The notes: generated by a model not told the origin, from the letters alone. Counted from the stretch's first letter, positions 9,194-36,395 are shown. The stretch is DNA of 37,755 nucleotides from Deferribacterales bacterium (GCA_050253335.1 JBFWJG010000021.1:1-37755), one strand, 5' to 3'. Program-made: numbers and translations.

Positions 9194-10078
9194 TTGAGGC
9201 TTTCAAAAATGTTTATGACTCCAGATTTTGAAAAAATATACAAAAACATTGACTCCAATGAATTAACTACAAGAATACGGGAATTTCGTAAACTTAATAT
9301 CAGAAACATGTCTACCAGTGAACTCGGAGAGGCAGTATATAAAGTACTAGTTGTCAATAACCGTTTCACCTTCCCAACACGCACACTAAATTACCAGGCG
9401 TGCACAATATTTTTCCGAGTAAGAAAGCTCGACGGGAGTATAATTCCTAATAAAAATCTATCAACTCTTTCAGATTTTTGGAACCCTCCCTCTGAAGTAA
9501 TACTCAACTACGGCAGACTAAATAAGCCTAATGAATCTTTACTTTATACATCACCAGACCCCAATCTATGTATTCAAGAAATGAAAATCAAGACTGGAGA
9601 ATATTTTGCCCTTATTAAGTATGAGTCAAAGGAAGTTATAAAAGCGAATCCAATATCCAGTGACATTGACTTTAAAGCTTTTAATATAAATGATCCCAAA
9701 GCACAGCTTAATTTAAATATAATAAATGATTTCTTAAAAGATGAATTTTCCAGAGACGTTGGTGTTGGAACTGAATACCTTTACAAGACCTCTGAATTTA
9801 TCGCAAAAAACTTTTTTGATCTTCCTCCGAGAGCCATGCAGGACGCTTGGTTGTATTCATCAATTTGGGACAAAACTAATTATAATATTTGCTTCAGACC
9901 TGAGATAGCAAAGGAACTACTTGAATTAAAAGGCGCTGTTATAGCAAAACTGGACGATAATCGTAATATAAATTGCTATGCCATTAGCTATGTATCCAAA
10001 ATAAATAACAATGTACAGTTTGAAACGATCGAAAGTGATATGAAAAAGGAACTCTTTCCTGAAATTTGTCCAAACTGA
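9194..10078 (+). CDS. RES-domain-containing protein, AT-rich and likely horizontally acquired (true start may be ATG 9209)
   Basis: FFRVRK...WNPP...YGRLNKPNESLLYTS...IQEM...YSS pattern typical of RES domains. Line 9241-9300 has 17/60 G+C versus 37/60 at 10441-10500. Confidence 0.7.
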   Translation: MRLSKMFMTPDFEKIYKNIDSNELTTRIREFRKLNIRNMSTSELGEAVYKVLVVNNRFTFPTRTLNYQACTIFFRVRKLDGSIIPNKNLSTLSDFWNPPSEVILNYGRLNKPNESLLYTSPDPNLCIQEMKIKTGEYFALIKYESKEVIKANPISSDIDFKAFNINDPKAQLNLNIINDFLKDEFSRDVGVGTEYLYKTSEFIAKNFFDLPPRAMQDAWLYSSIWDKTNYNICFRPEIAKELLELKGAVIAKLDDNRNINCYAISYVSKINNNVQFETIESDMKKELFPEICPN

Positions 10079-19089: not shown

Positions 19090-21189
19090 TTATACTATCC
19101 AGTCGTCACTGAAGTTATCAGAGAGATCGACCTCGACCATGTTATACTGCGGTGCGCGTTCCACCGCCTCGCCGTCTTTAAACAGGCGGAATATTATATA
19201 AAGCCTTCCGCTGTTGTCGGGCAGGTTTCTGTGCGGCAGGGCAATTTCCGCTATGCGGTTTATGCCCCATTTTATGCCGCCGCCGTTTTCGCCTCTGCCT
19301 GTTTTCAGGGGGATGCGGAACTTGGCAGGGCTGCTCCCCGTCACTTCCGTTTCTATCTCATAGCCTTTGTCCATGGCTCCGTTGAAGGCGCCTTCAATAC
19401 GCAGATACAGATTTTCCGCGTCATACCCGAAGAAAAGCCTGCGTAGCACATTTGACGAGGCGTGCATAGCCCCTGAGTCAAACTTGAGGTCAAACTCCCC
19501 AGCGCTGAGCCATTCGAAGAAGCTTGTCACCTCGCCGTCCGGAACGGCAGTGAGAAAATACTTCGGTTTTCTTATAAGCCCCGATTTGTAGGAACGTTTT
19601 ATGGGGATATAAAGCTCCTGCGGTATGCCGGTTCCGAGGATCCTGTACGCATTGATCAGATACCCTCTGAAAAGCTTGTCAAACACATCCGCCTGAAGGC
19701 TGAAATGGTCATCGCCGAACCACCAGAACCAGTCGCTCCCTTCGGCTATGCGTATCTCGTTCATGGCTTTTTCTTTCTTATCCGCATCCAGAGCCTTGTC
19801 CACAGCCTGTCTTGCGGCGTTGAGCAGTCTCCATGCCTCGTTCTTTTCCCTGTGGCCGAGCCATGTGGTAAAATTGCCGTATATCCATGAGCCTGCACGG
19901 ATTTTATCCAGCTCCTCCTGCGGCACATCCGCAAGTTCCGCAGCCTCTGACATGGTTACTGTGTTTATCCATTTTTCACGCCCGATCCGCTCATAGAGGG
20001 CACGGAAGAACTTATCCCCGTTTTCGGGGTAGTATTCCCACGCATTTTCCCCGTCCAGAATGACGGGAACGATGCAGGATTCATCCACTGAATCGTATAT
20101 AACTTTAAGCTTCGCCACAAAGTCGTCCGCGGCTTTTTCCGCGTCCATCCCGCTGTAGGTGAAGCCGATCAGATCGCTTAATATTTTGTCACGGAAGAAT
20201 ATATTTATCTTCCCGCTTGCTGTTTTATAATAATGTCTGCGGTAGAGCTTTTTCCTCTCCGCCGAAACGGAGAAATTCAGACCTGATGAACCCGCCAGAA
20301 CATCCTCGTCACTGGCTATCCATTTTACTCCGTTAGCGGAAAATAGCTCCGCCGCCCGCCCGCTTATGCTCCCTTCCGCCGGCCACATGCCGGAAGGCCT
20401 GCTGCCGAAAATATCTTCATAATATTTCACAGCCGCTTCCACATGCCACTGAGGGTCACGCCCGAAATCGCCGAAGGCGGCGGGCATGGGTATCTCCGGC
20501 AGGGCTTCCTTGGCGGAATCCAGATCCAGAAGCAGGGGCAGAATAGGATGATAAAACGGAGTGGCGGAAACCTCTATGCTCCCCGCATCCTGCAGTTCCC
20601 TGTAAAGCGGGATGATCCGCTTTACCGCTCCGCACAGGGTTTCCATCAGGCTGATTTTATCCTCCTGAGTGAAGCCTTTCCCCTTTGCGATGAGGCTTTC
20701 AATGAGCGGGTATTCCCTGCGGAAGAAGTTCCCTGTCCAGCTGAGCAGGTAAAGCACCTGCAAATCCAGTATCTCCGCATCGCTGAACAACCTTTCCGTG
20801 TTCTCAAACATGCCGCTGCGGCTGTTTTTGCTGTAAAGCTCCGCATACCTTCTGAAAGGGGCGATCATGTTTGCGAAGTTCGCCATGAAAAGCTGGGGCA
20901 CAAGCCCGCACCTCTCCTCCGATGTGAGTTCGGAGGGTTTTTTCAGCATGGTTCTGAAAAAAAGGTCATCCACATTTATATTTTCATAATCCTTGAGCTG
21001 GACAAGAAGAGAGGGGACAAGGTTGAATGTCTGCCTTATCCCCTTATATTCTTTCAGGTAGGCGGGAATCTCGTAGTAATCCTTCACGGCGTGCAGGAAC
21101 ACCCACGGCATGTGGTATGTTCCGTCCTGCCCGTCCTTGTAGAAGGGCTGGTGCATATGCCATAAAAAAGCGAGATTCAGCTTCTTCAT
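19090..21189 (-). CDS. GH57 amylopullulanase-type glycoside hydrolase
   Basis: FLWHMHQPFY, PFYHPILPLL, nucleophile WPAEGS, acid/base ILDGENAWEYY, AEGSDWFWW. Start trimmed to MKKLNL (21189). Confidence 0.9.
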   Translation of the reverse strand: MKKLNLAFLWHMHQPFYKDGQDGTYHMPWVFLHAVKDYYEIPAYLKEYKGIRQTFNLVPSLLVQLKDYENINVDDLFFRTMLKKPSELTSEERCGLVPQLFMANFANMIAPFRRYAELYSKNSRSGMFENTERLFSDAEILDLQVLYLLSWTGNFFRREYPLIESLIAKGKGFTQEDKISLMETLCGAVKRIIPLYRELQDAGSIEVSATPFYHPILPLLLDLDSAKEALPEIPMPAAFGDFGRDPQWHVEAAVKYYEDIFGSRPSGMWPAEGSISGRAAELFSANGVKWIASDEDVLAGSSGLNFSVSAERKKLYRRHYYKTASGKINIFFRDKILSDLIGFTYSGMDAEKAADDFVAKLKVIYDSVDESCIVPVILDGENAWEYYPENGDKFFRALYERIGREKWINTVTMSEAAELADVPQEELDKIRAGSWIYGNFTTWLGHREKNEAWRLLNAARQAVDKALDADKKEKAMNEIRIAEGSDWFWWFGDDHFSLQADVFDKLFRGYLINAYRILGTGIPQELYIPIKRSYKSGLIRKPKYFLTAVPDGEVTSFFEWLSAGEFDLKFDSGAMHASSNVLRRLFFGYDAENLYLRIEGAFNGAMDKGYEIETEVTGSSPAKFRIPLKTGRGENGGGIKWGINRIAEIALPHRNLPDNSGRLYIIFRLFKDGEAVERAPQYNMVEVDLSDNFSDDWIV

Positions 21190-23784: not shown

Positions 23785-24153
23785 TCAGGCTTTGTTTTTC
23801 TTTATAACGGCAGAAATCTCATTCAGAAGAGACTCCAGATCAGAGGGGGACTTCACCCAGTAGCCGTCAGCAAGCCATGTGGAAAAATCATCCTGATAGG
23901 CGCTGTAGGCTGTTGCGAGGATCGTTTTCACCGTTTTGTACTTTTTGGTGATCTCCTGAAGTATGTCTATGCCGCTTTCGCCTTTAAGCTTGATGTCAAG
24001 GAGGATAACATCGATCTTCTCCTTCTCAAGTATCTTAAAACACTCGGCACTGTTTGAGGCTTCAAATACTTTGTAGCCGCTGTCTTCAAGCTCTGTGCGG
24101 TAAAGTAGCCTGATCTCTGATTCGTCATCGACAACCAATACCGAATATGCCAT
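23785..24153 (-). CDS. Single-domain response regulator (receiver only)
   Basis: VLVVDDE, phospho-acceptor ILLDIKL, ATAY, YWVK; RBS GGAGG. Confidence 0.92.
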   Translation of the reverse strand: MAYSVLVVDDESEIRLLYRTELEDSGYKVFEASNSAECFKILEKEKIDVILLDIKLKGESGIDILQEITKKYKTVKTILATAYSAYQDDFSTWLADGYWVKSPSDLESLLNEISAVIKKNKA

Positions 24154-24172
24154 ATCTGACCTCCAATTTAAT

Positions 24173-24272
24173 TACAAAAATACCTACATAGTGTGGTATT
24201 TTTGTACACGCTCGCGCCTTGCGGAGCAAGGCTTCGCTTCGCACGGCGCAACTCCAGTCCATGGAGTTGCAT
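24173..24272 (-). repeat. GGA-loop structured repeat, copy A (short type)
   Basis: Closely similar to 34830-34931 (acacgctcgc...cttcgcacggcgcaactcca.tccatggagttg); three hairpins. Confidence 0.85.
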
Positions 24273-24303
24273 ACGCTCCGGTACGCGTTCCGTCTCTTTT
24301 GAT

Positions 24304-24363
24304 GATAGTTCAGAAACGGTACATCCTGTCCGTTTCCTCACACGCTCGCGCCTTGCGGCAGGC
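24304..24363 (-). repeat. GGA-loop structured repeat, copy B (partial)
   Basis: atagttcagaaacggtacatcctgtccgtttcctcacacgctcgcgccttgcgg matches the starts of the copies at 34680 and 34830. Confidence 0.85.
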
Positions 24364-24376
24364 AATTTTTAAGACT

Positions 24377-24410
24377 GAAAATGCCCGAAGACCAAAAAAA
24401 GGTTCGGGCA
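24377..24410 (-). terminator. Terminator-like hairpin inside the leader of the response regulator/glycogen cluster (or the rpe terminator)
   Basis: Minus strand tgcccga-acc-T7-ggt-ct-tcgggca followed by tttt. Confidence 0.55.
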
Positions 24411-24504
24411 CAGCAGTATGCCGCATATTTTCAAGACCTGTGTCCGCCATCATAGTTCCGCAAAGCTTAACAAGTGAAAAAGGCGTGACACATCTTTTGT
24501 ATCA

Positions 24505-24534
24505 AGTATACCACGGGGCGGGAATAATGGGCAA
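24505..24534 (-). promoter_or_regulatory. Putative sigma70 promoter facing the glycogen cluster
   Basis: Minus strand TTGCCC-N18-TATACT with an extended -10 TG-G. Confidence 0.55.
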
Positions 24535-24580
24535 TACGATAAAGATTTGGATTAGTTTGAAAAAATGTCAGGAAATGCGG

Positions 24581-25219
24581 TTACTTGAGCGATTTTATCG
24601 CTTCAGCGTATGAGGATGCGCCGAAAACATAGCTTCCGGCAACAACGGCATTGCAGCCGGCGTTTTCAAGAATTTTTACATTTTTATCAGTGACTCCGCC
24701 GTCAACCTCGATGATAAGTTCAGGCCTGAGAGCCTTTTTCATTTCGGCAAGCTTGGCAACCTTGGCCACCGAACTCTCTATAAACTTCTGTCCGCCGAAA
24801 CCGGGGTTCACAGACATTATCAGCACCATATCCAGAAAAGGCAGAATCTCCTCCAGCACGGAGACAGGAGTGTGGGGATTGAGAGAGACACCTGCCATGC
24901 ATCCATGAACTTTGATCTCGCTCACTGTTCTGTGAAGATGTGTGCACGCTTCATAATGCACGGTTATGAGGTTTGAGCCGGCATCGGCAAAGTCTTTGAT
25001 GTATCTGTCGGGGTCGGTGATCATCAGGTGCACGTCAAAAGGCTTCTGCGTGGTTTTGCGCAGATGTTTCACCACAGGCGCGCCGAAGGTGATATTAGGA
25101 ACGAATACGCCGTCCATGACATCAAGGTGGATCCAGTCTGCCCCGCCCTTGTCGATGGCCTGTATCTCTTCCGCCAGTCTTGAAAAATCCGCGCTGAGTA
25201 TTGAAGGTGCAACTATCAT
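24581..25219 (-). CDS. rpe: Ribulose-phosphate 3-epimerase
   Basis: APSILSADF, HLDVMDG.FVPNITFG, DVHLMI, MSVNPGFGGQKFI, IEVDGG, VAGS. Confidence 0.98.
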   Translation of the reverse strand: MIVAPSILSADFSRLAEEIQAIDKGGADWIHLDVMDGVFVPNITFGAPVVKHLRKTTQKPFDVHLMITDPDRYIKDFADAGSNLITVHYEACTHLHRTVSEIKVHGCMAGVSLNPHTPVSVLEEILPFLDMVLIMSVNPGFGGQKFIESSVAKVAKLAEMKKALRPELIIEVDGGVTDKNVKILENAGCNAVVAGSYVFGASSYAEAIKSLK

Positions 25220-25327
25220 CGGGCTATGATATTCATCAGCGTATGAATGTCAACAAATTAAAAGGGACTCCCTGTTTTTTACAAATTTTATATAACGGCA
25301 GCCCAAACCGGAGCCGATGGATCATTT

Positions 25328-26320
25328 ATGAAAAAGCTTTTTATCACATTTCTTCTTACAGTATTCACGGGAACTCCGTCTTTCGCCGTGCCCCTCACTG
25401 ACGAGGCTCTCTCATTCGCGGACAGGCTCTATTCGAAATACGGCATCGACCCTGTGAAAACCGCACTTATCATTCAGAGCGCAGAATATTCCGAAAAGGC
25501 TCTCTCTCTTATGGACAGACAGTTTGAAAAAAGCGGCTGGGGGGTTTACAGAAAAGGGATGGTAACAGGTCCCAGAAGCACCAAAGGGGGCAGGTTTTAC
25601 CTTGAACACAGACCAAGCCTCGAGCTGGCTTATATGCAGTTCGGCGTGACTCCGGAGATAATCGCCGCAATACTCGCTGTGGAAACCAACTACGGAGACT
25701 ACAAACTGCCTCACAGAGCTGTTGACGTTCTTTCCACCCTCGGCTTCTTTTATCCGAGGCGCGCAGACTACTTCCGCTCCGAGCTGGAAGCGCTTTTAGC
25801 CTATGCGGAAAAGAAAGGTATGGATCCCTTCTCGTTCATGAGCTCATACGCAGGCGCTGTGGGCATACCGCAGTTTATGCCCAGCAACATAAGCAAATAC
25901 GGAGTTGATTTCGGCGGGGACAGCATTGTCGATCTTGTTAACAGCAAAACAGATGCAATAGGAAGCGTTGCGAATTATCTGGCCAAGTTCGGCTGGCAGA
26001 AGGACAAACCAACCGCAATAAAGCTCCGCGGCACAGGGTTTGACAGCTTTCTGGGGCAGGGATACGAGCCGAAATTCACGGTTAAGGAGCTTGAGGACGC
26101 AGGAATAGTCTTCGCCATACCGGCAGACCCGTCAGAAAAAGTGAACCTGATACGCCTCCAGACAGACAAAGGCTTTGAGCATTGGGCAATATTCAGCAAT
26201 TTCAGAACAATAATGCGCTACAACAACAGCGCAAACTATGCTCTGGCTGTTCTTCTCATAAGCAAGAATATTGAGGAGGAAAGAAAAATGCTGGAGGCGG
26301 AAAATACGGGAGGCTCATGA
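25328..26320 (+). CDS. mltB: Lytic murein transglycosylase B family (SLT_2)
   Basis: Signal peptide; catalytic AILAVETNYG, SYAGAVGIPQFMPS, GVDF.GD, SVANYL, YNNS..YA. Confidence 0.9.
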   Translation: MKKLFITFLLTVFTGTPSFAVPLTDEALSFADRLYSKYGIDPVKTALIIQSAEYSEKALSLMDRQFEKSGWGVYRKGMVTGPRSTKGGRFYLEHRPSLELAYMQFGVTPEIIAAILAVETNYGDYKLPHRAVDVLSTLGFFYPRRADYFRSELEALLAYAEKKGMDPFSFMSSYAGAVGIPQFMPSNISKYGVDFGGDSIVDLVNSKTDAIGSVANYLAKFGWQKDKPTAIKLRGTGFDSFLGQGYEPKFTVKELEDAGIVFAIPADPSEKVNLIRLQTDKGFEHWAIFSNFRTIMRYNNSANYALAVLLISKNIEEERKMLEAENTGGS

Positions 26321-26329
26321 AAGCCTCCC
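26308..26329. terminator. Hairpin between convergent mltB and ABC ATPase genes
   Basis: gggaggct-catgaa-agcctccc, an 8-bp stem overlapping the mltB stop. Confidence 0.5.
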
Positions 26330-26338
26330 CGCTCTGTC

Positions 26339-27064
26339 TTACAATATCTGACTGAGAAATTTCTTCAGTCTTTCGTTCTGAGGATTGTTATATATAGCCT
26401 CAGGCGTGTTTTCTTCGATTTTGAGCCCTTCATCCATGAAGACCACCCTGTCTGACACTTCACGGGCAAAGCCCATTTCATGAGTTACCACAACCATTGT
26501 CATCCCCTCTTTGGCGAGGGTTTTTATAACGTCAAGAACCTCGCCTATCATCTCGGGGTCAAGGGCGCTTGTGGGTTCATCAAAAAGCATGACCTTCGGA
26601 CGCATGGCAAGGGCTCTGGCTATCGCCACCCTCTGCTGCTGACCGCCGGAAAGCTGTGAAGGGTAGCTGTCCCTCTTGTCCGCAAGCCCTACCTTGGCGA
26701 GCAGATTCTCGGCTATCTTAACCGCTTCCGCCTCTTTCATTTTCTTAACTTTCAGCGGAGCAAGGGTAATATTGCCCAGCACTGTTTTGTGGGGAAAAAG
26801 GTTGAAGCTCTGGAAAACCATCCCCACATCCTCCCGAAGCTTGTTTATGTTCGTTTTGGGATGAGTGAGCGAGTTTCCGTCTATCTCTATTTCTCCGGAG
26901 GTAACTTCCTCAAGGAGATTCAGTGTTCTCAGCATAGTGGATTTGCCCGAACCGGAAGGACCGATGATAACCACCACCTCTCCCTGAGCGACATCCAGAT
27001 CAACCCCTTTAAGTGCCTGAACACCGTTGGGGTAAGTTTTTACAACATTTCTTGCTTTAATCAT
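26339..27064 (-). CDS. Polar amino acid ABC transporter ATP-binding protein (GlnQ family)
   Basis: [55 protein letters not shown]. Confidence 0.96.
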
Positions 27065-27078
27065 TTGCGCGCCTCCCT

Positions 27079-28023
27079 TTAATCACTGCTTGCCATTTTC
27101 TTTTCAAGCTTCTGCACCAGAACGGAAAGCCCCGATGTGAGCACAAGATAAAGAAGCGCAACCGTGAACCATGTTTCAAACGGGCTGAAAGTGGTGGCGC
27201 TGACCTCCCTGCCTGCCTTTGTGAGGTCGGTTATGGAGATTACCGAAACAAGGGAGGAGTCTTTGATAAGGGATATGAACTGCCCCGCCATAGGGGGGAG
27301 AGTTCTTTTGACGGCCTGAGGCAGAACAACATAGATCATTGCCTTTGTGTAGCTCATGCCGAGGCTTCGTGCCGCTTCCATCTGCCCTTTGTGGATTGAC
27401 TGAATGCCCGCGCGGACAATCTCCGCGACATATGCGCCCGTAAAAACCGCAAGGGCGGCCACGCCCGCAGTGAAGCGGTCCAGGGAGAGAACGGTTCCGA
27501 TAAAGAAATAGAATATGAATATCTGCACCAGAAGCGGAGTGCCCCTGATCAGCTCAACATAAAGTATGGAGAGCTTCTTGAACATCGGGTTGCGCGAAAT
27601 CCTCGCCAGCCCGGCAAAAACGCCGATGATCACGGCGAAAATTATCGAGAAGAAGGATATCTGAAGTGTGGTGGCAAGCCCGATTAAGAGCGGGCCTGCC
27701 TTCCACGATTTATTTACGGCAACAGTGTGCCCTTTCAGTACTGTATCGCCGTCACCAAGTCTGCTTTCCTGCGGTTTTTCAACAACGAAAGCTTCGCCTC
27801 CGCCGTGGGGGACAACACTGATTCTCCCTTTTTCAACAACGGCTTTGCCGTCAAAGGGAGCTTTGACTGTCTCCTCCGCAGTGTAGATGATGAACTGTGG
27901 AATCCTGTTCCAGCGCCATTTGTAGTCGATCTCAAGGGTCGCCATATACAGAGCGCCGATCAGCGCGGCCACCAGCGCATAAAACGCTATGTTCCAAGCA
28001 AGGTCTTTTCCTGAACGGGTCAC
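27079..28023 (-). CDS. Polar amino acid ABC transporter permease (HisM/GlnP family) with an extra periplasmic insert
   Basis: [44 protein letters not shown] start. Confidence 0.94.
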
Positions 28024-28039
28024 TATCGCCTACTCCGAA

Positions 28040-28876
28040 TTATTCCTGAATATCTTTCAGCCAGTCGTTGGAAAGGAACCATTTGTTGTATGTTTCCTGA
28101 TAGAATCCGTCGCCTTTAACCTGAGCAAGGAAGTTGTTCAGCCAGTTCATAAAGTCGTAGTCGCCTTTTCTGATGGCCCATGCAAGGGGTTCATATGTGA
28201 AGGGCTCGTCTATGAAGAAGAGGTTTTCGCTGTTCTGAGAGAAGAAAGACGCGTTGTAGGGAAGGTCATAAACAAAAGCGTCCGCTTTGCCGTTTATAAC
28301 TTCCATAGCCGCTTCCTGCTCAGTTTCGAAAAGTCTGATTGTGGCGTTGCCTATGAATCTTTTTGTTGCGTATTCAGCAGTTACGCCGAGTTTTGTCGCG
28401 ATAACGAACTTGGGATCGTTAAGATCTGCATAGCTCTTTACAGTGCCTTCGTGTTTTTTGTGCACAAGGATTGTCTGGCCTACAGTGATGTAGGGGTTCG
28501 CGAAGTTAACCTGAATGTTTCTTTCAGGAGTGATTGTCATGCCTGACATGATTATGTCAAACTTCTTAGTAAGAAGAGAAGGAATGATTCCGTCCCATGC
28601 AGTGTTTACAAGAACAAGCTTAACACCGAGGTCTTTAGCCATTCTTTCCGCCATGTCAACGTCGAAGCCAACGATGTCGCCCTGTTTGTTTTTAAGCTCG
28701 AAGGGCATGTAGCCTGCTTCAAGACCGACATGAAGTTCGCCTCTCTTGACTATTTCATCAAGTACGGAACCGGCTGCTGCGGGTGCGGCGGATGTTTCTG
28801 ATGTTGCCTCTTTTTTTTCGGATGAGCAGGCAAAGCTCATCAGCATTACGGCAAGAATTACCAGTAATTTCTTCAT
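28040..28876 (-). CDS. Polar amino acid ABC transporter substrate-binding lipoprotein (SBP_bac_3)
   Basis: Lipobox SFAC, YMPFE, GFDVD, WDGIIPSL, SGMTITPER, F..PY. Confidence 0.94.
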   Translation of the reverse strand: MKKLLVILAVMLMSFACSSEKKEATSETSAAPAAAGSVLDEIVKRGELHVGLEAGYMPFELKNKQGDIVGFDVDMAERMAKDLGVKLVLVNTAWDGIIPSLLTKKFDIIMSGMTITPERNIQVNFANPYITVGQTILVHKKHEGTVKSYADLNDPKFVIATKLGVTAEYATKRFIGNATIRLFETEQEAAMEVINGKADAFVYDLPYNASFFSQNSENLFFIDEPFTYEPLAWAIRKGDYDFMNWLNNFLAQVKGDGFYQETYNKWFLSNDWLKDIQE

Positions 28877-28887
28877 ATTACTTCCTC

Positions 28888-29058
28888 CTAATAGGATTTT
28901 CCTTCTTCAAGAATTTCCGAGATAATCATGTTGGAGCCGCATTCCGGACATTTGCCGATCTGCTCTTTAGGGATGTATTTGATTTGGGTAAACTCGCACT
29001 TCGGACACTTAACTTCAACAGCCTGAATTTTGTCAGAATCGGAATTTTTCTTACTCAT
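28888..29058 (-). CDS. Small zinc-ribbon protein, 56 aa (below the ORF-track cutoff)
   Basis: My translation: MSKKNSDSDKIQAVEVKCPKCEFTQIKYIPKEQIGKCPECGSNMIISEILEEGKSY*. Two CxxC knuckles, upstream GGAG RBS, and a TAG stop that overlaps the AGGAGG RBS of the SBP gene. Confidence 0.85.
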   Translation of the reverse strand: MSKKNSDSDKIQAVEVKCPKCEFTQIKYIPKEQIGKCPECGSNMIISEILEEGKSY

Positions 29059-29238
29059 CCCCGAAACTCCCGTAAAATAAATTGGTCTTACCCCAGTAAA
29101 AACCGCATACTATAATAAAACTGTTAAAAAATAAAGCTAATTGTGGCATAACACCTGTTATCTGTAGCATCACACAGTTAAAGGAGCCTTAAAATCAAAC
29201 TGTTCAGGAAACTTCTGCGTTCCGCGGGGAAGCCTACT

Positions 29239-29865
29239 ATGGAGAAGGGGGCGAACGCTCTTCAGGAGAAAAATTTCTCCAGAGCCTACCGCATCTTCTC
29301 CGCCCTTGCGGATGAAAATGTTCCGGAAGCCGTGTTCGCCCTCGGCACAATGTATGAGAACGGATTCGGGCTTCCGCAGGATCTGAGACGCGCCCTCAAG
29401 CTTTACATAGCTTCCGCCAGAAGAGGGGTTAATGAAGGAGCATACCGCGCGGCGATGATACTCATCAAAGGCGACACCGGCCACAGGGATCCGCTTCTTG
29501 CCGTAAGGCTCCTTGAGGAAGCGGCGGAACGCGGCCATGACAGAGCGCAGTATAAGCTGGGGTTTTACCATCAGGCGGCAAAATATGTTGTGCGGGACTA
29601 CGACAAAAGCATCGCATACTACAGACAGGCGGCGGAACAGGGAAACGCCGACGCGCAGAACAAACTGGGACTTATGCACGCCGCAGGCAAGGGAACAGCG
29701 AAGAACTATGAAGAGGCGATAAAATGGCTTACGCTCGCCGCCGGACAGCGGCACCCCGAGGCACTGTATAACCTCGCGTGCATGTATCATGAAGGAAAAG
29801 GCGTGCAGGCAGACCTGAAAAAAGCCGTTCGGCTGTTCAAACTCGCCGCCAAGGCATACGGATAA
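29239..29865 (+). CDS. Sel1-like repeat (TPR) protein
   Basis: Five repeats of type A...LG.MY..G.G...D...A..(W/Y)...AA..G. Confidence 0.92.
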   Translation: MEKGANALQEKNFSRAYRIFSALADENVPEAVFALGTMYENGFGLPQDLRRALKLYIASARRGVNEGAYRAAMILIKGDTGHRDPLLAVRLLEEAAERGHDRAQYKLGFYHQAAKYVVRDYDKSIAYYRQAAEQGNADAQNKLGLMHAAGKGTAKNYEEAIKWLTLAAGQRHPEALYNLACMYHEGKGVQADLKKAVRLFKLAAKAYG

Positions 29866-29885
29866 CAAGGCTCAGCCATCAGCGA

Positions 29886-30164
29886 GAGATTCTTCACTGC
29901 GCTCAGAATGACGCTGAAACAGGCACAGGGATGTGCCCGCGGAGTGCGTACCGCAGCGAATGCGAGGAACGCAAGCGAAGCCTAAGCAGCAAGCGGTTTC
30001 ACCGCGCAGGCTGCGTGTGAAGAAAAACTGCACGGACGCAGGTTTTTCTGAACTACGGAAAGACAGAGACTGCTCACTCTCTCAGGGTTCGCGATGCCGC
30101 AAACCCGCCGTCACTCTGAGCATACGCGAAGAGTCTCTGAGGCACAAAGGTCCGGGATTCTTCA
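29886..30164. repeat. Second palindromic repeat family (gtcattctgagc...gaagaatctc type), four full or partial units
   Basis: Units at 29886-29912, 30066-30098 (degenerate), 30110-30137 (inverted) and 30154-30164 (truncated, contains the dnaA stop). Confidence 0.7.
29920..30056 (+). repeat. GGA-loop structured repeat, copy C (long type, opposite orientation)
   Basis: Reverse complement aligns end-to-end with 34680-34816, including a 55-nt block with 2 mismatches. Confidence 0.9.
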
Positions 30165-31499
30165 TTGGTATAAGGTCTTCTCCAGTGCGGTGATAATCTC
30201 CTGAATCTCTTTGTCTTCCTTGCATTTCTTCTCAATTGACTGCACTGAGTGAAGAACAGTTGAATGATCCCTTCCGCCGAAGAGTTCACCCACTTCCTGC
30301 AATGAAATATTCAGCTTGTTCCTTAATATATACATGGCTATCTGCCTGGGCAGAGATATGCTTTTTGTGCGCTTCTTTGATTTAAGGTCGCTCATCTTCA
30401 CGTTGAAGTAGCCTGTCACAGCATCGATAATATTCTCCTCCGTGACCATTTTATCCTTGCGGACAAGAAACTTATCAAGTGACTTCCGCGCGAGTGCGAT
30501 GCTCAGGGGTTCATTATGGAAAGAAGCGTATGCGCTGAGACGGACAAGAGCCCCGATAAGCTCCCTTATGTTCTCAGTTTTGATATTTTCAGCAAGGAAC
30601 ATACCCAGCTCGTCAGAGAGCTTGAGGTTCATTATGTCCGCGCGCTTCATTATGATCGCCGCCTTCTCCTCCGTTGAGGGAGCCTGAATATCGGCGATAA
30701 GTCCCCATGCGAAGCGGCTGCGCATCCTCTCCTCAAGGTCTGGAATCTCACTGGGCGTTTTATCGCTGGTGAGAATTATCTGCTTCTGGGATTCGTACAA
30801 TGTATTGAAAGTGTAGAAAAATTCCTCTGTGCTTCTCTGTTTGCCCGCAAGAAACTGAACATCATCAAAAAGCAGCATATCTATATTGCGGTATTTGCTT
30901 CTGAATTCATCCATTTTCTTGGTTTTCAGCGACTGGATCATCTCATTGGTAAATGTCTCGGAAGTTATGTACAGCACCTTGAGCTTGGGGAACCGTTCCA
31001 TGATTCTGTTGCCCGCCGCCTGCATGAGGTGTGTTTTCCCGAGCCCCACGCCGCCGTAGATAAAAAGCGGGTTATACTTCTGGAAATGCCCCTCGGAAAC
31101 CGCAAGGCAGGCCGCATGTGAGAACTGGTTTGAACTGCCCACGACGAAGTTTTCAAAAATGTAATCCCGGTTGAGGTTGGAAGAGGCGGGAATTTTGTAG
31201 TCCGCCACAGCGGAAGAAGTCACCGGAGCCTGAGAAACTGTCTGCGCCTTCGGAGCATCACCAGTGATGATAAGTACGTCAGCGTCTATTGAAAGCCCCT
31301 CGTTGAAAATCTTCTTTAATGTATCGAGATATTTCTCCTCAACCCAGTTCTTATAAAACTTGTTCGGAGCCTGAAGGGTGATCAGATCCCCCCTCACCTC
31401 AACCATCTGCAAAGGCTTTATCCATGTGGACACCACATCGTCGGAGCAGTGTTTTTTCGCTTCTTTAAGTACTTCTTCCCAGATCTTTACATCTTCCAT
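30162..31499 (-). CDS. dnaA: Chromosomal replication initiator protein DnaA
   Basis: FENFVVGSSN, YNPLFIYGGVGLGKTHL, DDVQFL, RSRFAWGL, NIRELIGAL, PRQIAMY, FGGRDHSTV. Confidence 0.99.
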   Translation of the reverse strand: MEDVKIWEEVLKEAKKHCSDDVVSTWIKPLQMVEVRGDLITLQAPNKFYKNWVEEKYLDTLKKIFNEGLSIDADVLIITGDAPKAQTVSQAPVTSSAVADYKIPASSNLNRDYIFENFVVGSSNQFSHAACLAVSEGHFQKYNPLFIYGGVGLGKTHLMQAAGNRIMERFPKLKVLYITSETFTNEMIQSLKTKKMDEFRSKYRNIDMLLFDDVQFLAGKQRSTEEFFYTFNTLYESQKQIILTSDKTPSEIPDLEERMRSRFAWGLIADIQAPSTEEKAAIIMKRADIMNLKLSDELGMFLAENIKTENIRELIGALVRLSAYASFHNEPLSIALARKSLDKFLVRKDKMVTEENIIDAVTGYFNVKMSDLKSKKRTKSISLPRQIAMYILRNKLNISLQEVGELFGGRDHSTVLHSVQSIEKKCKEDKEIQEIITALEKTLYQ

Positions 31500-31610
31500 A
31501 GTGCTGCAATTCCAATAAGCTGATTTTATTTTTCGCGCCGAGAATAAATCATATAAGGCATGTCTGATCAGTATATGTCTTTTTCCTCTCCGCGAAAAGG
31601 GATAATAGGC

Positions 31611-31643
31611 AAAAAAAGGCGAAGCCTCTTTAGAAGACTTCGC
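31611..31643 (-). terminator. Rho-independent terminator downstream of the aminotransferase
   Basis: Minus strand gcgaagtcttctaaagaggcttcgc followed by c and T7. Confidence 0.7.
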
Positions 31644-31691
31644 AGATTTTAAAATTGATTAAAAAGATTTGGTTTCTTTGGAAGGAGTTTG

Positions 31692-31727
31692 AGGAAACCT
31701 TTCTTTTTCATTAAAGAAAGGTTTCCT
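31692..31727. repeat. Perfect 15-bp inverted repeat
   Basis: aggaaacctttcttt-ttcatt-aaagaaaggtttcct. Confidence 0.85.
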
Positions 31728-31765
31728 TAATTTTTCAAGAAAATATCCTTCTTAAAACCGAATGC

Positions 31766-31807
31766 GGCTTCGCTCCGCACGGCGCGTTCCCGTCCATGGG
31801 AATGTAT
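31766..31807 (-). repeat. GGA-loop structured repeat, copy D (fragment)
   Basis: ggcttcgctccgcacggcgcgttcccgtccatgggaatgtat aligns with the 3' half of copies A and F, with a re-paired terminal stem. Confidence 0.75.
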
Positions 31808-33114
31808 CACTTCGCTGAAGATTCCACGTATTCCACTATTTTTTCGGCGAGGCGACGCACCATGAATTCGAAGCGGTCCGCATCGCGTTCAAGGAGTGTC
31901 ATGCGGAATCCGGGCTTGCTTGTGAAGAATGATGTCAGCGGGACAACGCAAATGCCTGTGGCGCCGAGGAGATAGTAAACAAAGCGCTTATCGTTTTCTA
32001 TGTTGGTGCCTGTTATGCTTTCCACATAGTTCCGCACTCCCTCATCCTCGATATGCAGTTTCTGCTTGCTGTTGAGGACAGCCTCATTGAACACGACAGA
32101 CATATAGAACGCGCCGTTTGTCCTGTTCACAACCACATAGGGGACATCACGCAGGATGCTGTAGGCTATATTTGAAAGTTTTTCGTAATGCTTTATTTTT
32201 TCAGCAAGATAAGGTTTGTACTCAGGGTGAGACATTATGCGCGGAATGGACATCTGAGGGAATGTGGTGGAGCAGACCTCGGACATTTTCTGTGTGAGGA
32301 TGGCGTCCACATATCTCTGGAAAGCGGGGTCCTTGTCATAGTTGTAGACCTCGATCCAGCCGCATCTCGCTCCGGGCCAGGGGTATTCCTTGCTGATCCC
32401 TTTCATGCTTATTCCGGGCACATCGCCTATTATGTCGGAGAGAAGCACGGTTTTTGAGCCGTTGTAGGACATATTTGCGTATATTTCATCAAACACGAGC
32501 ATAAGGTCATATTCTTTGGCGATGCGCACTATCTGCCTGAGCCCTTCTTCCGTGTGAACATAGCCGGTGGGGTTGTCGGGGTTGATTACCAGTATGCCCA
32601 CTATGGAGCGGAAGCTTCTCACCTTGCTCTCAAGCTCGTCAATATCCGGCGCCCAGTGCTTGTAAGGGTTCATCTGGTATGTGTTCGGCGGGAAGGAAGC
32701 ATGGAGAACCTCCGCCAGAAGGTGCGTGGAGTATGTGGGTTCGGGCATGATGATCCTCGCATCAACCCTGATCGCGCTGTATGATCTCGCTATCGCGTCG
32801 CCCAGACCGTTGAAGAAAATAATATCCTCCGCCGTGATCTGCGCTCCGCCGCGTGCGTTAACCTGTGCGGCTATGTACTCTCTGGTTTCCAGAACGCCTT
32901 TGGTGGGCGAATAGGCGTATGCGTTGTTATCCATGATAATTTTCGCGAGTTCCTCTTTCATCCAGTCCGGAAGAATTTCGCCTTTGACAATGGGATCGCC
33001 TATGTTTTCCCAGTAAATGTCCACACCTGCCTGACTGAGTTTGCTCGCCACATTAACAATGTTGCGTATCTCATAAGTCAGGCCGTTTCCGCTTTTGGCA
33101 AGATCATACCTCAT
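31807..33114 (-). CDS. PLP-dependent aminotransferase class I/II (AlaA/AspC-like)
   Basis: ENIGDP, Y..TKG, INPDNPTG, FDEIY, PLP-lysine motif GISKEYPWPGARCGW. Confidence 0.92.
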   Translation of the reverse strand: MRYDLAKSGNGLTYEIRNIVNVASKLSQAGVDIYWENIGDPIVKGEILPDWMKEELAKIIMDNNAYAYSPTKGVLETREYIAAQVNARGGAQITAEDIIFFNGLGDAIARSYSAIRVDARIIMPEPTYSTHLLAEVLHASFPPNTYQMNPYKHWAPDIDELESKVRSFRSIVGILVINPDNPTGYVHTEEGLRQIVRIAKEYDLMLVFDEIYANMSYNGSKTVLLSDIIGDVPGISMKGISKEYPWPGARCGWIEVYNYDKDPAFQRYVDAILTQKMSEVCSTTFPQMSIPRIMSHPEYKPYLAEKIKHYEKLSNIAYSILRDVPYVVVNRTNGAFYMSVVFNEAVLNSKQKLHIEDEGVRNYVESITGTNIENDKRFVYYLLGATGICVVPLTSFFTSKPGFRMTLLERDADRFEFMVRRLAEKIVEYVESSAK

Positions 33115-33145
33115 TAGTCTACCCTCGCATAATATGACCGTTGAA

Positions 33146-33199
33146 TACCCGTTTTACGGGTAAATCATCGTTTATATAACAATATTTGTATACTTTCAA
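33146..33199 (-). promoter_or_regulatory. Sigma70 promoter and adjacent palindrome for the aminotransferase
   Basis: Minus strand TTGAAA (33199-33194)-N17-TATAAA (33176-33171); palindrome tacccgt-ttt-acgggta at 33146-33162. Confidence 0.6.
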
Positions 33200-33267
33200 T
33201 AAGCAGTTTACGTATTTTTAAAACATAACAGACAGCTTATTTTCCGGCGTTTTTTTGACCGTGAAAC

Positions 33268-33305
33268 AAAAAAAGCGCCGCTTGCCCAAGGTAGGGAAAC
33301 GGCGC
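33268..33305 (-). terminator. Rho-independent terminator of gltX-der
   Basis: Minus strand gcgccgtttccc...gggcaagcggcgc followed by T7. Confidence 0.8.
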
Positions 33306-33339
33306 CTGCAATTTTTCAGCCATGCCTGATTAAAGAGGG

Positions 33340-34668
33340 TCAGCCTTCTTTCTTCTCCCCTCTCTGCCTGATGAACAGCTTTATGGGTATACCCTGAAAA
33401 CCGAAGTATTCCCTTATTATGTTGATCACGAAGCGCTGGTATGAAAAGTGCACCGAATCCGGATAGTTGGCGAAGATAACAAATTGCGGCGGGCACGCCG
33501 CCACCTGTGTCATGAAGTAAAGCTTGAGCCTTCTTCCCTTAACCACCGGAGGCTGGTGACGCTCAAGGGCGGTTTGCAGAACACGGTTAGCCTCTCCTGT
33601 GCCTACCCTTTTGGTATATTCCTTATAGAGACCCTTCGCGGCCTCGAAAATTTTATAAACGTTTTTGCCGCTCATGGCGGAAGCGAATATAACAGGGGGA
33701 TTGTTAAGGAACTGCAGCTTAAATTCTATGTCAGCTCTCATTTCCTTTGCGGCCTGATCCTTGTTTTCCACAGCGTCCCACTTGTTGACAACGAGAATAA
33801 CGGGTCTGCCCGCTTCCCATGCATCCGCAATAACCTTTACATCGCGTTCGTTAAGGCCTTCAACCCCGTCAATGAGGCAGACTGCTATATCCGAGCGGGA
33901 AACTGCGTCCTCCCAGCGGTAGTAGCCGTATTTCTCTATCCTGTCCTTGAACATGACGGATTTTTTTCTGATACCTGCGGTATCTATGAGCACATATTTC
34001 TCATCGCCGTATTCAAAGAGAGTGTCCACAGCATCCCTTGTAGTGCCGGGAATATCAGTGACAATGAGCCTCTCCTCACCGAGCCAGCGGTTGATCATGC
34101 TGGACTTGCCCACATTGGGGCGGCCTGTGACGATCAGCTTTATGCGGCCGTCATAGCTGAAATTTTCCTCTTCCTCATCTTCCGGCAGGCGGGAGATTAT
34201 CTCGTCCATAAGGTCGTCCACGTTTCGCCCGTGGGTTGCGCTTATGGGGAAAACCTTGTCGATTCCCATGGAAAAGAAGTCATAGGCGAGGTTGTCCGCC
34301 GCGGATGAGTCTATCTTGTTTACAGCGACTACAAAGTCTTTTCCGCCCTCCCTCAGGAGTCCGCACACAATTTCATCCAGCGGGTGAACGCCTTCGCGTC
34401 CGTCTACCATGAGGATGAAAAAGTCTGCTTCTTCAAGGGAATACATGAACTGACGCTGCATTTCCTTTTTTACAATCTCTTCTTTCAAGTCATATCCCGC
34501 GGTATCCACCACACGGAAACGCCTGCCGAGCCATTCGGCGGTAAATTCTATTCTGTCACGGGTAACGCCCGCCATGTCGTCCACGATGGCGATTCTCTGC
34601 CCCGCCAGTCTGTTGAAAAGTGTGGACTTGCCTACGTTCGGGCGTCCGATTATTCCGATTTTTTTCAT
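33340..34668 (-). CDS. der: Ribosome biogenesis GTPase Der (EngA)
   Basis: Two G domains (GRPNVGKS, DTAG, NKID/NKWD) plus a KH-like C-terminus (PPQFVIFAN, SYQRF). Confidence 0.98.
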   Translation of the reverse strand: MKKIGIIGRPNVGKSTLFNRLAGQRIAIVDDMAGVTRDRIEFTAEWLGRRFRVVDTAGYDLKEEIVKKEMQRQFMYSLEEADFFILMVDGREGVHPLDEIVCGLLREGGKDFVVAVNKIDSSAADNLAYDFFSMGIDKVFPISATHGRNVDDLMDEIISRLPEDEEEENFSYDGRIKLIVTGRPNVGKSSMINRWLGEERLIVTDIPGTTRDAVDTLFEYGDEKYVLIDTAGIRKKSVMFKDRIEKYGYYRWEDAVSRSDIAVCLIDGVEGLNERDVKVIADAWEAGRPVILVVNKWDAVENKDQAAKEMRADIEFKLQFLNNPPVIFASAMSGKNVYKIFEAAKGLYKEYTKRVGTGEANRVLQTALERHQPPVVKGRRLKLYFMTQVAACPPQFVIFANYPDSVHFSYQRFVINIIREYFGFQGIPIKLFIRQRGEKKEG

Positions 34669-34679
34669 TCCATATTCCT

Positions 34680-34816
34680 GATAGTTCGAAAAAACCTACA
34701 TCCTGTAGTTTTTTCTCACTCGCAGCCTGCGGAGCAAAGCTCCTTGCTGCTCTGGTTACGTTTGCGTTCCTCGCATTCGCTGCGGTACGCACTCCACGGG
34801 CACATCCATGTGCCTG
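34680..34816 (-). repeat. GGA-loop structured repeat, copy E (long type)
   Basis: Matches the reverse complement of 29920-30056; abuts the der RBS. Confidence 0.9.
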
Positions 34817-34829
34817 AAATTCTTTTTCT

Positions 34830-34931
34830 ATAGTTCAGAAACGCTACATCCTGTCCTTTTCTTCACACGCTCGCGGTTTGCAAAGCAAACCTTCACTTCG
34901 CACGGCGCAACTCCATCCATGGAGTTGTATA
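34830..34931 (-). repeat. GGA-loop structured repeat, copy F (short type)
   Basis: Matches copies A and B at 24173-24363. Confidence 0.9.
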
Positions 34932-34952: not shown

Positions 34953-36395
34953 TCAGCCAATGATCTCCAGAGCTGCGTCAAGTCTTCTCAGCAGTTCGTC
35001 CACGGGCATGAGTGTTGCCATTTTATCTATTTCAGGCCCCTTGACGGAGCCGGATATGCCTACTCTTACCGCCATGAAAAGGGGCTTGCCCTTCACACCC
35101 GTTTCTGCCTGAACAGCCTTGGGTATGTCCTTATATTCCTCTTCCTTAATATATCCGCTGAAAGCGGCTACTTTTTCCCTGAACGCTTTAAGCACCGCAG
35201 GCGTGGTTTCCAGTTTGAGAAATTCCATAGCCTCCTCATCCGGTGTCTGATACTGGAAGTATACCTTCATAACATCAGGCGCGTCGCCGAGAAGTTCCAT
35301 CTTGCTTGCGACTGAGGCAATCATTTTCACATAAACTTCCCTTTCCAGCCTGTCCGCGGGAAGACCGGCTTCAATGAGAAAAGGCATACAGAGCTCCGCG
35401 AGCTCCTCAGGAGTTTTCATGCGGATGTACTGTCCGTTCAGCCATTTCAGCTTCCCGAAGTCGAAGACTGCGGCGCTGGTTGATACACGTTCAAGACTGA
35501 ACGACTTTATCAGCTCCTCGCTGCTTATTATCTCTCTCTCCTGTTCGTCAGACCAGCTAAGCAGAGCGAGGAAGTTGAACAGGGCATCGTTCAGGTAGCC
35601 CTGCGAGCGGAACTGCTCAATGCTTGTGTTGCCGTGGCGTTTGGAGAGCTTTGACCTGTCCTCGCCGAGAATCATGGGGATGTGTATGAACTCAGGGCGG
35701 CTGAAATTCAGGGCATCAAAAATAAGCGCCTGCTTTGGGGTGTTGCTCAGATGGTCATCCCCTCTTATCACATGGCTTATTTTCATCAGCGCGTCATCTA
35801 TAACCACCACATAGTTATACACAGGCACCCCGTCAGGGCGGACAATTATAAAATCGCCGAAAACACCTGTCTCGAAATCTATCTCGCCCTTAATCCTGTC
35901 GGAAATGTGCACAACCTCTTTATCAATCTTAAAACGGATAGCGTATGGAGCCTCCGAAGCCTCAAGCTCCGCCTTCTGCGAGGGGGAAAGGTTTCTGCAT
36001 CTGCCGCTGTAAACAGGCTGGCGGTTTTCTATGCGCGCCTTCTCCCTTTCGGCGTCAAGCTCTTCCTTGGTGCACCAGCATTTATACGCATGCCCTTTCT
36101 CAAGGAGTTCCTCAGTGTATTTTTTATATATATCAAATCTTTCTGACTGCCTGTATGGGCCGTAATCCCCGCCTTTCTGGGGGCCTTCGTCCCAGTCCAT
36201 AAGAAGCCATTTCATATCCTCATATATAAGCTCCTCACTGGCGAGGGTGGAGCGATCGAAGTCCGTATCCTCTATTCTCAGAATGAAAGTGCCCCCCATG
36301 CTGCGCGCGAAAAGATAATTGAAAAGCGCCGTTCTGGCGTTCCCTACGTGTATGTGCCCTGTGGGGCTGGGTGCGAATCTCACTCTTACTGACAT
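34953..36395 (-). CDS. gltX: Glutamate--tRNA ligase
   Basis: RVRFAPSPTG.IHVGN (HIGH), LRIEDTD, YRQSER, HVIRGDDH, KLSKR (KMSKS). Confidence 0.98.
   Translation of the reverse strand: MSVRVRFAPSPTGHIHVGNARTALFNYLFARSMGGTFILRIEDTDFDRSTLASEELIYEDMKWLLMDWDEGPQKGGDYGPYRQSERFDIYKKYTEELLEKGHAYKCWCTKEELDAEREKARIENRQPVYSGRCRNLSPSQKAELEASEAPYAIRFKIDKEVVHISDRIKGEIDFETGVFGDFIIVRPDGVPVYNYVVVIDDALMKISHVIRGDDHLSNTPKQALIFDALNFSRPEFIHIPMILGEDRSKLSKRHGNTSIEQFRSQGYLNDALFNFLALLSWSDEQEREIISSEELIKSFSLERVSTSAAVFDFGKLKWLNGQYIRMKTPEELAELCMPFLIEAGLPADRLEREVYVKMIASVASKMELLGDAPDVMKVYFQYQTPDEEAMEFLKLETTPAVLKAFREKVAAFSGYIKEEEYKDIPKAVQAETGVKGKPLFMAVRVGISGSVKGPEIDKMATLMPVDELLRRLDAALEIIG

Follow-up and report, generated by a model that had tools for sequence, protein, structure and literature searches.

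A structured, dispersed GGA-hairpin repeat family with CsrA-type loops in a Deferribacterales genome

Introduction

Dispersed repeats that bear sites for the global regulator CsrA, namely TwoAYGGAY and Bacillaceae-1, are already in print (Gardner and Eldai 2015, PMC4333381). GGA repeats resembling TwoAYGGAY are widespread. The TwoAYGGAY motif (Weinberg 2010, PMC2864571) has been proposed to act as a Csr/Rsm sponge with mobile-like expansion, in a preprint that itself treats the spread of such repeats and their Csr binding as still to be settled (Li et al., bioRxiv 10.64898/2026.09.22.753630). Here we describe a family of intergenic repeats with GGA hairpins that is represented by six copies in a stretch of 37,755 nucleotides (nt) from a Deferribacterales bacterium (GCA_050253335.1, JBFWJG010000021.1:1-37755; contig C21 of an assembly of 2.58 Mb in 142 contigs), hereafter the window. 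A preliminary description of the window had seen in these copies a mobile repeat distributing CsrA-binding modules and had known of no precedent, a claim to novelty that the published CsrA-site repeats remove (PMC4333381; bioRxiv 10.64898/2026.09.22.753630). The family is a real, structured and uncatalogued variant of the GGA-repeat type, for which the CsrA idea is plausible but already published.

The repeat works like TwoAYGGAY (RF01731, clan CL00106) yet is not a member of it. Both are multi-copy, intergenic, structured repeats with two A(N)GGA loops, tandem G-A pairs and varying copy number, and the two hairpins with AYGGAY-like loops of TwoAYGGAY have counterparts in the CA(N)GGANG loops of hairpins 1 and 3 of our unit. 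The TwoAYGGAY model reaches at best 22.4 bits in the genome, against a gathering threshold of 43 and not at a full unit, and has no match in the window. The present family is without the enclosing basal stem, a capped tandem-GA stem stands between its two GGA hairpins, which in TwoAYGGAY are neighbours, and its arrays are tandem and same-strand rather than divergent doublets. It is also accompanied by host duplications, which the main text of the preprint does not mention (bioRxiv 10.64898/2026.09.22.753630).

TD-2 of Treponema denticola (RF03162; also TD-1) shares the three-hairpin layout with GGA loops on the first and last hairpin. Its Rfam consensus comprises a short AUGGAU hairpin, a middle hairpin with GAG/GAAG and a long A/U-rich hairpin with an ACGGAU loop. 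It was reported with 36 copies and covarying stems in one genome, and the section of that paper dealing with it states that the motif does not occupy a 5' regulatory position, proposing no link to CsrA (Weinberg 2007, PMC1950547). The TD-2 model scores 33.8 bits (E 0.003) here and 31.0 bits in genome G029, with gathering at 48.7; the core sequence differs, as does the phylum. The CsrA-FliW system of Campylobacter jejuni is similar in its FliW-type CsrA, fliW-csrA arrangement and flagellin-leader sites. The flaA leader carries ANGGA hairpin loops, its mRNA is both CsrA target and sponge (Dugar 2016, PMC4894983), and the CANGGANG hexaloop is a high-affinity CsrA/RsmE site (PMC4894983). That case concerns one native leader, whereas ~160 repeat-borne modules in unrelated transcripts are found here.

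Long target duplications of variable length link the family to IS1549 and IS1634, whose direct repeats span 8-514 bp and for which the account consulted proposes no mechanism (PMC2266710). Those are autonomous DDE elements, whereas our repeat is non-coding, without PF01609 and without visible terminal inverted repeats. REP, BIME and REPIN sequences are intergenic, prefer positions 3' of genes and convergent spacers, form arrays and persist vertically with turnover. Placement, arrays and turnover are similar here; unlike in REP/REPIN-RAYT systems, there is no Y1/RAYT gene in the high-copy genomes, host duplications are long and the unit is not a simple palindrome doublet. A literature search that did not cover most subscription journals turned up neither this family nor GGA repeats with host duplications.

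Results

The six copies are members of a genome-wide family of 139 short and 21 long units (~160), with matches in relatives from families f1 and f7; 38 of the genome's copies served to train a covariance model. The core pattern matches 139 times in the genome (136 distinct) and not once in one base-shuffled genome; a few of the 139 short units are contig-end duplicates, and long units were searched for separately. With coding sequence defined by gene calls made within this analysis, no unit anywhere in the genome lies inside it. The repeat supplies 236 of the 287 strong intergenic GGA hairpins of the genome, and further variants exist among the other 51.

The unit begins with hairpin 1, a short CANGGANG hairpin of 7 base pairs (bp) with an ANGGAN loop. 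This is followed by a 3-bp mini-hairpin, one free base and a tandem G-A stem capped by a variable 5-bp hairpin. The 3' part consists of a 4-nt linker and the long CA(N)GGANG hairpin that we call hairpin 3, whose stem has 10-13 bp and whose loop reads AGGAN or ANGGAN; a short tail rich in A and T follows. Across the 38 aligned copies, both sides have changed in 21 of the 28 predicted pairs, and helices 1 and 4 are paired in 98.5% and 99.1%, respectively. The covariation score is 0.451 versus 0.153 after shuffling (0/500), a value inflated by the relatedness of the copies. For hairpin 3, 1032 of 1090 cells are Watson-Crick.

Over 30 compensated stem types have arisen, whereas C, A, G, G, A and G in the loop are 99-100% fixed; the two N positions reach at most 56% and 45%. 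Loop conservation was counted in 86 of the 136 distinct units, selected by stem pairing only: GGA is kept in 85 of the 86, compared with 39-48 at neighbouring loop positions, which bears out the earlier expectation that GGA would be conserved beyond the rest of the loop. Of the 92 units in which hairpin 3 is well paired, 88 carry GGA in its loop, and at 221 sites GGA is predicted to be unpaired (0.93-0.97). The repeat loops display the CANGGANG / ANGGA motif in a hairpin loop that is given for CsrA-binding RNA (PMC4894983).

The core contains an AGCGA/GAGCG tandem-GA motif that is kept across two families. As GNA mini-hairpins are stable in DNA, the GCGNAGC stretch could be read as such a structure; we rejected this reading, since substitutions compensate alternative pairs (6/7 and 3/4 cases) and not the mini-hairpin pairs, and variants that delete or add the N also contradict it. 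Core-pattern matches outside the lineage (loci L102, L285, L290, L305 and L308) form no hairpins and, lying in coding sequence, are probably due to chance. A tandem array with a 199-nt period (G000:C96:120-720) represents a divergent subtype whose core resembles the f7 form, and at L049 (G051) copies are interspersed with tRNA-like genes in a cluster.

The genome holds 95 repeat loci, 50 between co-directional genes, 22 in convergent and 3 in divergent spacers, and 20 at contig ends. GGA lies on the mRNA strand in 42 of the 50 co-directional loci and antisense in 8 (p=1.2e-6), so in this genome the orientation relative to transcription is non-random, as had been anticipated. Among spacers of at least 100 nt, 22 of 85 convergent ones are occupied versus 3 of 190 divergent ones: the repeat avoids divergent promoter regions. 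A co-resident palindrome family of 103 copies served as internal control and is unbiased (26:27). At 17 of 64 loci, the repeat starts within -6 to +10 nt of the stop codon of the sense gene. Replication strand was rejected as the cause of the bias, as 6 of 8 loci with the gene on the estimated lagging strand follow the gene; these numbers are small, with only 46 of 141 contigs assignable.

Arrays in sister genomes (n=98), which are not independent of this genome, comprise 24 sense, 0 antisense, 22 convergent, 2 divergent and 50 unclear cases. The single best loci of 25 other genomes fall into 14 sense, 2 antisense, 3 convergent, 1 divergent and 5 unresolved.

The host carries csrA, which the preliminary description had asked to confirm along with fliW, directly after fliW at the end of a flagellar hook-junction operon whose genes we take to be flgK and flgL. 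The loop recurs in both flagellin leaders, at 33 and 43 nt upstream of the start codon, together with a GGA in the Shine-Dalgarno (SD) sequence. In 14 of 46 repeat loci, the last GGA hairpin stands 24-51 nt before a start codon. Within the phylum, csrA occurs in 60 of 68 genomes; models R1 and R2 together match 16 of 16 genomes of family f1, at least 15 of 21 of f7 and one, marginally, elsewhere. RNA runs comprise four contig-level sets from one study, a small share, and depth over the repeats in them sums paralogues.

Several individual sites stand out. Near 4480 on the minus strand of G000:C107, the loop of hairpin 3 is itself the likely SD sequence and the start codon of the next gene lies in the 3' arm, a possible exaptation and the best site for a test of cis-regulation. 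In family f7 (L056, L058, L066, L255, L259, L260 and L263), the element sits directly upstream of the same gene, presumably RNase E/G-like from its N-terminus, after a recR-like gene in several genomes. In three f7 genomes it directly precedes the SD sequence of this gene. At L061, L063 and L271 it is found upstream of an oxidoreductase gene. A lone GGA hairpin near 20436 on the plus strand of G000:C12 is preceded by a promoter sequence resembling the sigma-28 consensus, and is a probable native CsrA target unrelated to the repeat.

Comparison of genomes reveals array reshuffling and rapid turnover at orthologous sites. All four genomes of the genus have an array of 1-5 units, varying in composition, at the gltX-der junction, where G030 lacks any spacer, and window copies C, D and A/B are each absent from at least one sister genome. 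This variable presence between sister genomes makes the repeat mobile-like, as the preliminary description had it. Of 88 loci that could be tested, 27 have an array flanked by a direct repeat (score at least 16); permuting the flanks gave 4 in 1000 pairs. One copy of the duplication is at least half host coding sequence in 16 of the 27 (18-69 bp), and in 15 of these 16 the second copy begins 5-21 nt past hairpin 3 (mode 11). Spacers with an element repeat the last codons of the gene in 16 of 93 cases and other spacers in 3 of 508, and all three exceptions contain a missed element variant just before the duplicated codons. The rate is lower in the sister genomes and a metagenome, with duplications at 14 of 134 arrays.

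Two pairs of filled and empty alleles argue for true target duplication. An element in G029 interrupts codon 13 of a gene, presumably smc, and the first 39 bp are repeated downstream, running into an intact frame, while G000 has the plain, empty allele. For a gene on contig C41 of G000, the SD sequence and first codons are duplicated over 58 bp, and G027 has an empty spacer of 98 nt. On the 5' side of the G029 insertion, 21 nt match sequence that flanks another copy. In 5 of the 16 coding cases the duplicate is followed by a partial second unit, and at one orthologous site two genomes carry lineage-specific duplicates, so units are also re-copied locally from the 3' tail. Empty alleles may have lost the element through recombination of the direct repeats. 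At L209, a source for a 54-nt 3' extension was looked for and not found. A minority of loci combine a fixed 3' end with a ragged 5' end and a variable target duplication.

Surprising, and new here, are the long target duplications, for which no helper was detected. Y1/RAYT transposases (PF01797) are missing from G000 and G027-G030, and no copy adjoins a Y1 or reverse transcriptase gene in 30 loci. DDE_Tnp_1 (PF01609) is found in 0 of 5 genomes, transposase families beyond this and Y1/RAYT not having been tested, and self-comparison of the genome's proteins yields no multi-copy transposase. Flank logos show no terminal inverted repeats, and viral contigs contain 0 matches to the repeat. The only GIY-YIG match in the genome is an open reading frame (ORF) of 615 amino acids that we take for UvrC. 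Reverse transcriptase (PF00078) occurs in one of the four genus genomes and is absent from G000, G029 (complete), G030 and G054. RtcB was rejected as helper because it is patchy (4/16) and does not track the element. None of the tested candidates, that is Y1/RAYT, GIY-YIG, reverse transcriptase, DDE_Tnp_1, multi-copy proteins and RtcB, tracks the element. Elsewhere, in G014, a Y1 transposase occurs in 17 identical copies on contig C2, a second replicon, every one on the same strand.

The copies in the window and their neighbours are as follows.

23785..24153, minus strand: response-regulator receiver gene, downstream of A (PF00072)
24168..24273, minus strand: copy A, full short unit with hairpin 1 (GGA, 24249-24269), core, variable hairpin 2 and hairpin 3 (24174-24205)
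24302..24363, minus strand: copy B, 5'-truncated, 3' half of core and hairpin 3 with GGA (24313-24336); covariance model E 0.005
24449..24534, minus strand: two sigma-70-like promoter matches upstream of B/A, weak (2 versus 0.9 expected by chance)
24581..25219, minus strand: ribulose-phosphate 3-epimerase gene, upstream of B/A (PF00834)
29239..29865, plus strand: Sel1-repeat gene, upstream of C (PF08238)
29887..29912, minus strand: palindrome of a second, unrelated repeat family (~103 genome copies)
29918..30058, plus strand: copy C, long subtype in a convergent spacer, GGA hairpins 29922-29937 and 30028-30041
30110..30136, plus strand: palindrome of the same second, unrelated family
30162..31499, minus strand: dnaA, convergent on C and downstream of D (PF00308)
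31766..31807, minus strand: copy D, 3'-truncated, hairpin 1 with GGA (31787-31802) and half of the core
31807..33114, minus strand: class I/II aminotransferase gene, upstream of D (PF00155)
33340..34668, minus strand: engA/der GTPase gene, directly downstream of E (PF01926, PF14714)
34678..34818, minus strand: copy E, long subtype, GGA hairpins 34799-34814 and 34696-34708
34827..34931, minus strand: copy F, full short unit, GGA hairpins 34908-34927 and 34839-34862
34953..36395, minus strand: gltX, upstream of F/E (PF00749)

All nine GGA hairpins that the preliminary description had counted are present: the seven it quoted recur verbatim in place and strand, and the first of copy A (24249-24269) and the last of copy F (34839-34862) complete the set. 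Its six copies do all match one family but are not equivalent, as A and F are full short units, C and E are long and B and D are truncated. Copies A (99.9 bits) and F (88.3 bits) match the covariance model by construction, having been in its training set; the same model also matches D (E 3e-9), C (2e-5), E (7e-4) and B (5e-3). An Rfam scan of the window returned no relevant family. The GGA strands are as had been described, though the orientation argument built on them holds only in part: copy C lies between the convergent Sel1 gene (plus) and dnaA (minus), is therefore in sense for the first gene, in antisense for the second, and gives no orientation information. With three orientation-informative loci in the window (A/B, D and E/F), the strand bias rests on the genome-wide count (42/50).

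Copy A, which folds stably (z -6.8), has lost GGA from the loop of hairpin 3 and has a 1-nt insertion in its first loop; its end lies ~20 nt 5' of the response-regulator start codon. Given the weak sigma-70-like promoter matches, B and A might fall in a 5' leader. No terminator-like site was found in the A/B spacer. Copy C is present in G027 and missing at locus L120, and copy D begins at the aminotransferase stop codon, a site that is empty in L119 and L120. Copy E, stably folded too (z -3.0), adjoins the ribosome-binding region of der with its hairpin 3. None of the window's own copies is flanked by a long duplication (best score 9).

The second palindromic family is of a GTCA...GAAGA-TC type without strand bias, 44 of its 103 copies lying within 400 nt of a GGA unit. 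It is reminiscent of the repeats associated with small GIY-YIG (Ssn-type) nucleases, yet the genome's only GIY-YIG match is the 615-amino-acid ORF. A third small family of A/T-rich long hairpins (~9 genome loci) occupies the dnaA leader at window positions 31661-31745 and is missing in L119 and L120. After groEL, an A/T-rich ORF of 294 amino acids (window 9194-10078) has atypical codon use and was probably acquired horizontally.

Discussion

Anatomy, covariation, loop conservation, sense bias in the genus, avoidance of divergent spacers, turnover and host duplications near the 3' tail are directly supported. We favor, at a probability of roughly 55%, a lineage-specific, self-propagating structured repeat of ~100-140 nt that resides as single-stranded RNA in host transcripts and offers two CsrA-type loops per unit. 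Judging from sequence, the unit would fold as RNA within these transcripts and bind CsrA, giving repression in cis at SD sequences and a distributed sink overall. A flagellar-type CsrA dimer would bind the CA(N)GGANG loops. Where hairpin 3 stands 24-51 nt before a start codon, the dimer could bridge its loop and the SD GGA and so dampen translation, as it would at the host's own flagellin leaders, and the many copies together would form a distributed, transcription-coupled CsrA sink beside FliW. New copies would be made by a strand-copying process whose 3' end is fairly constant, ~11 nt beyond hairpin 3, and whose 5' end is ragged. This process would duplicate tens of bp of target and build local arrays, and recombination between direct repeats may remove copies again. 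The strand-copying route may be DNA-level template switching or a nickase and, less likely, processed RNA.

A number of observations weigh against this reading. The central core is conserved to 92-100%, as invariant as GGA, which CsrA does not explain, and the counts of G-U and A-C pairs (20 versus 11) do not fix the strand. In G054, a distant relative from family f7 with 59 matches, GGA loops are retained without a sense bias (7 sense, 10 antisense, 17 convergent and 3 divergent among 37 loci). Among the matches listed, csrA is present in all 31 clear carrier genomes and the repeat in 0 of 8 csrA-less ones. This co-occurrence lends weak support, because 29 csrA-positive genomes of the phylum are without a clear match among those listed, and in the families of the csrA-less genomes the csrA-positive members are also without the repeat. 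Retention of GGA does not differ between the last unit of an array (36/39) and inner units (43/49; p=0.73). Genes downstream of the repeats, as far as their N-terminal translations go, are functionally mixed, the names being presumed, and site occupancy differs between close relatives, which argues against gene-specific regulation at most sites.

The invariant core, its tandem G-A pairs kept across two families, the rapid turnover with array reshuffling, the G054 copies and the long duplications, which point to active copying, would all suit a selfish REP/REPIN-like element without host regulation. Only intact copies would then be copied by a nucleic-acid-binding enzyme, or CsrA would merely shield the element's RNA, and the sense bias would reflect the copying mechanism or the purging of harmful orientations. 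We regard this as possible, if tentative. Against it, no Y1/RAYT gene is found in the four genus genomes or G030 and no DDE_Tnp_1 in five, GIY-YIG is confined to one 615-amino-acid ORF, no copy adjoins a Y1 or reverse transcriptase gene in 30 loci and none is in viral contigs, and the pattern of free and fixed loop positions fits CsrA specifically. Propagation in the manner of a short interspersed nuclear element (SINE) appears rather unlikely. Processed RNA units, with the 3' end trimmed ~11 nt past the last hairpin and the 5' end set by a cleavage site in the upstream mRNA or the first loop, would be returned to DNA by a polymerase that belongs to the host or is present transiently. Sense insertions and duplications of 20-70 bp would follow, and hundreds of CsrA modules in housekeeping operons would act as a distributed sink in a FliW-type host thought to be without Csr small RNAs.

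Enterobacterial REP stem-loops stabilise mRNA 3' ends, and the present repeat, too, is stably folded, is enriched after genes and in convergent spacers, and begins within -6 to +10 nt of the sense gene's stop at 17 of 64 loci. A generic 3'-end stabiliser or processing barrier, with incidental GGA loops inherited from founder copies, is nevertheless improbable, as it requires no particular loop sequence, whereas more than 30 compensated stem types here share fixed loop letters. We consider it very improbable that each copy is an independently transcribed small RNA with its own promoter, forming a multi-copy RsmX/Y/Z-like sponge. The two GGA hairpins per unit and the orientation-independent G054 copies, with a shared motif flanking them on both sides, would agree with such RNAs. 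Against them, orientation in this genome follows the host gene and many copies begin right at the stop codon of the preceding gene, too close for a promoter to fit in; of the features of stand-alone CsrB/RsmXYZ-type transcripts, A/B has promoter matches at chance level and no terminator.

The family offers two handles. One is a genome-wide strand bias with an unbiased internal control, in a host with flagellar, FliW-controlled CsrA. The other is the filled and empty alleles with long target duplications, which constrain the copying mechanism and which the transposase and reverse transcriptase families tested do not explain. If CsrA binding is confirmed, turnover of the repeat would rewire the target set of a global regulator between close relatives.

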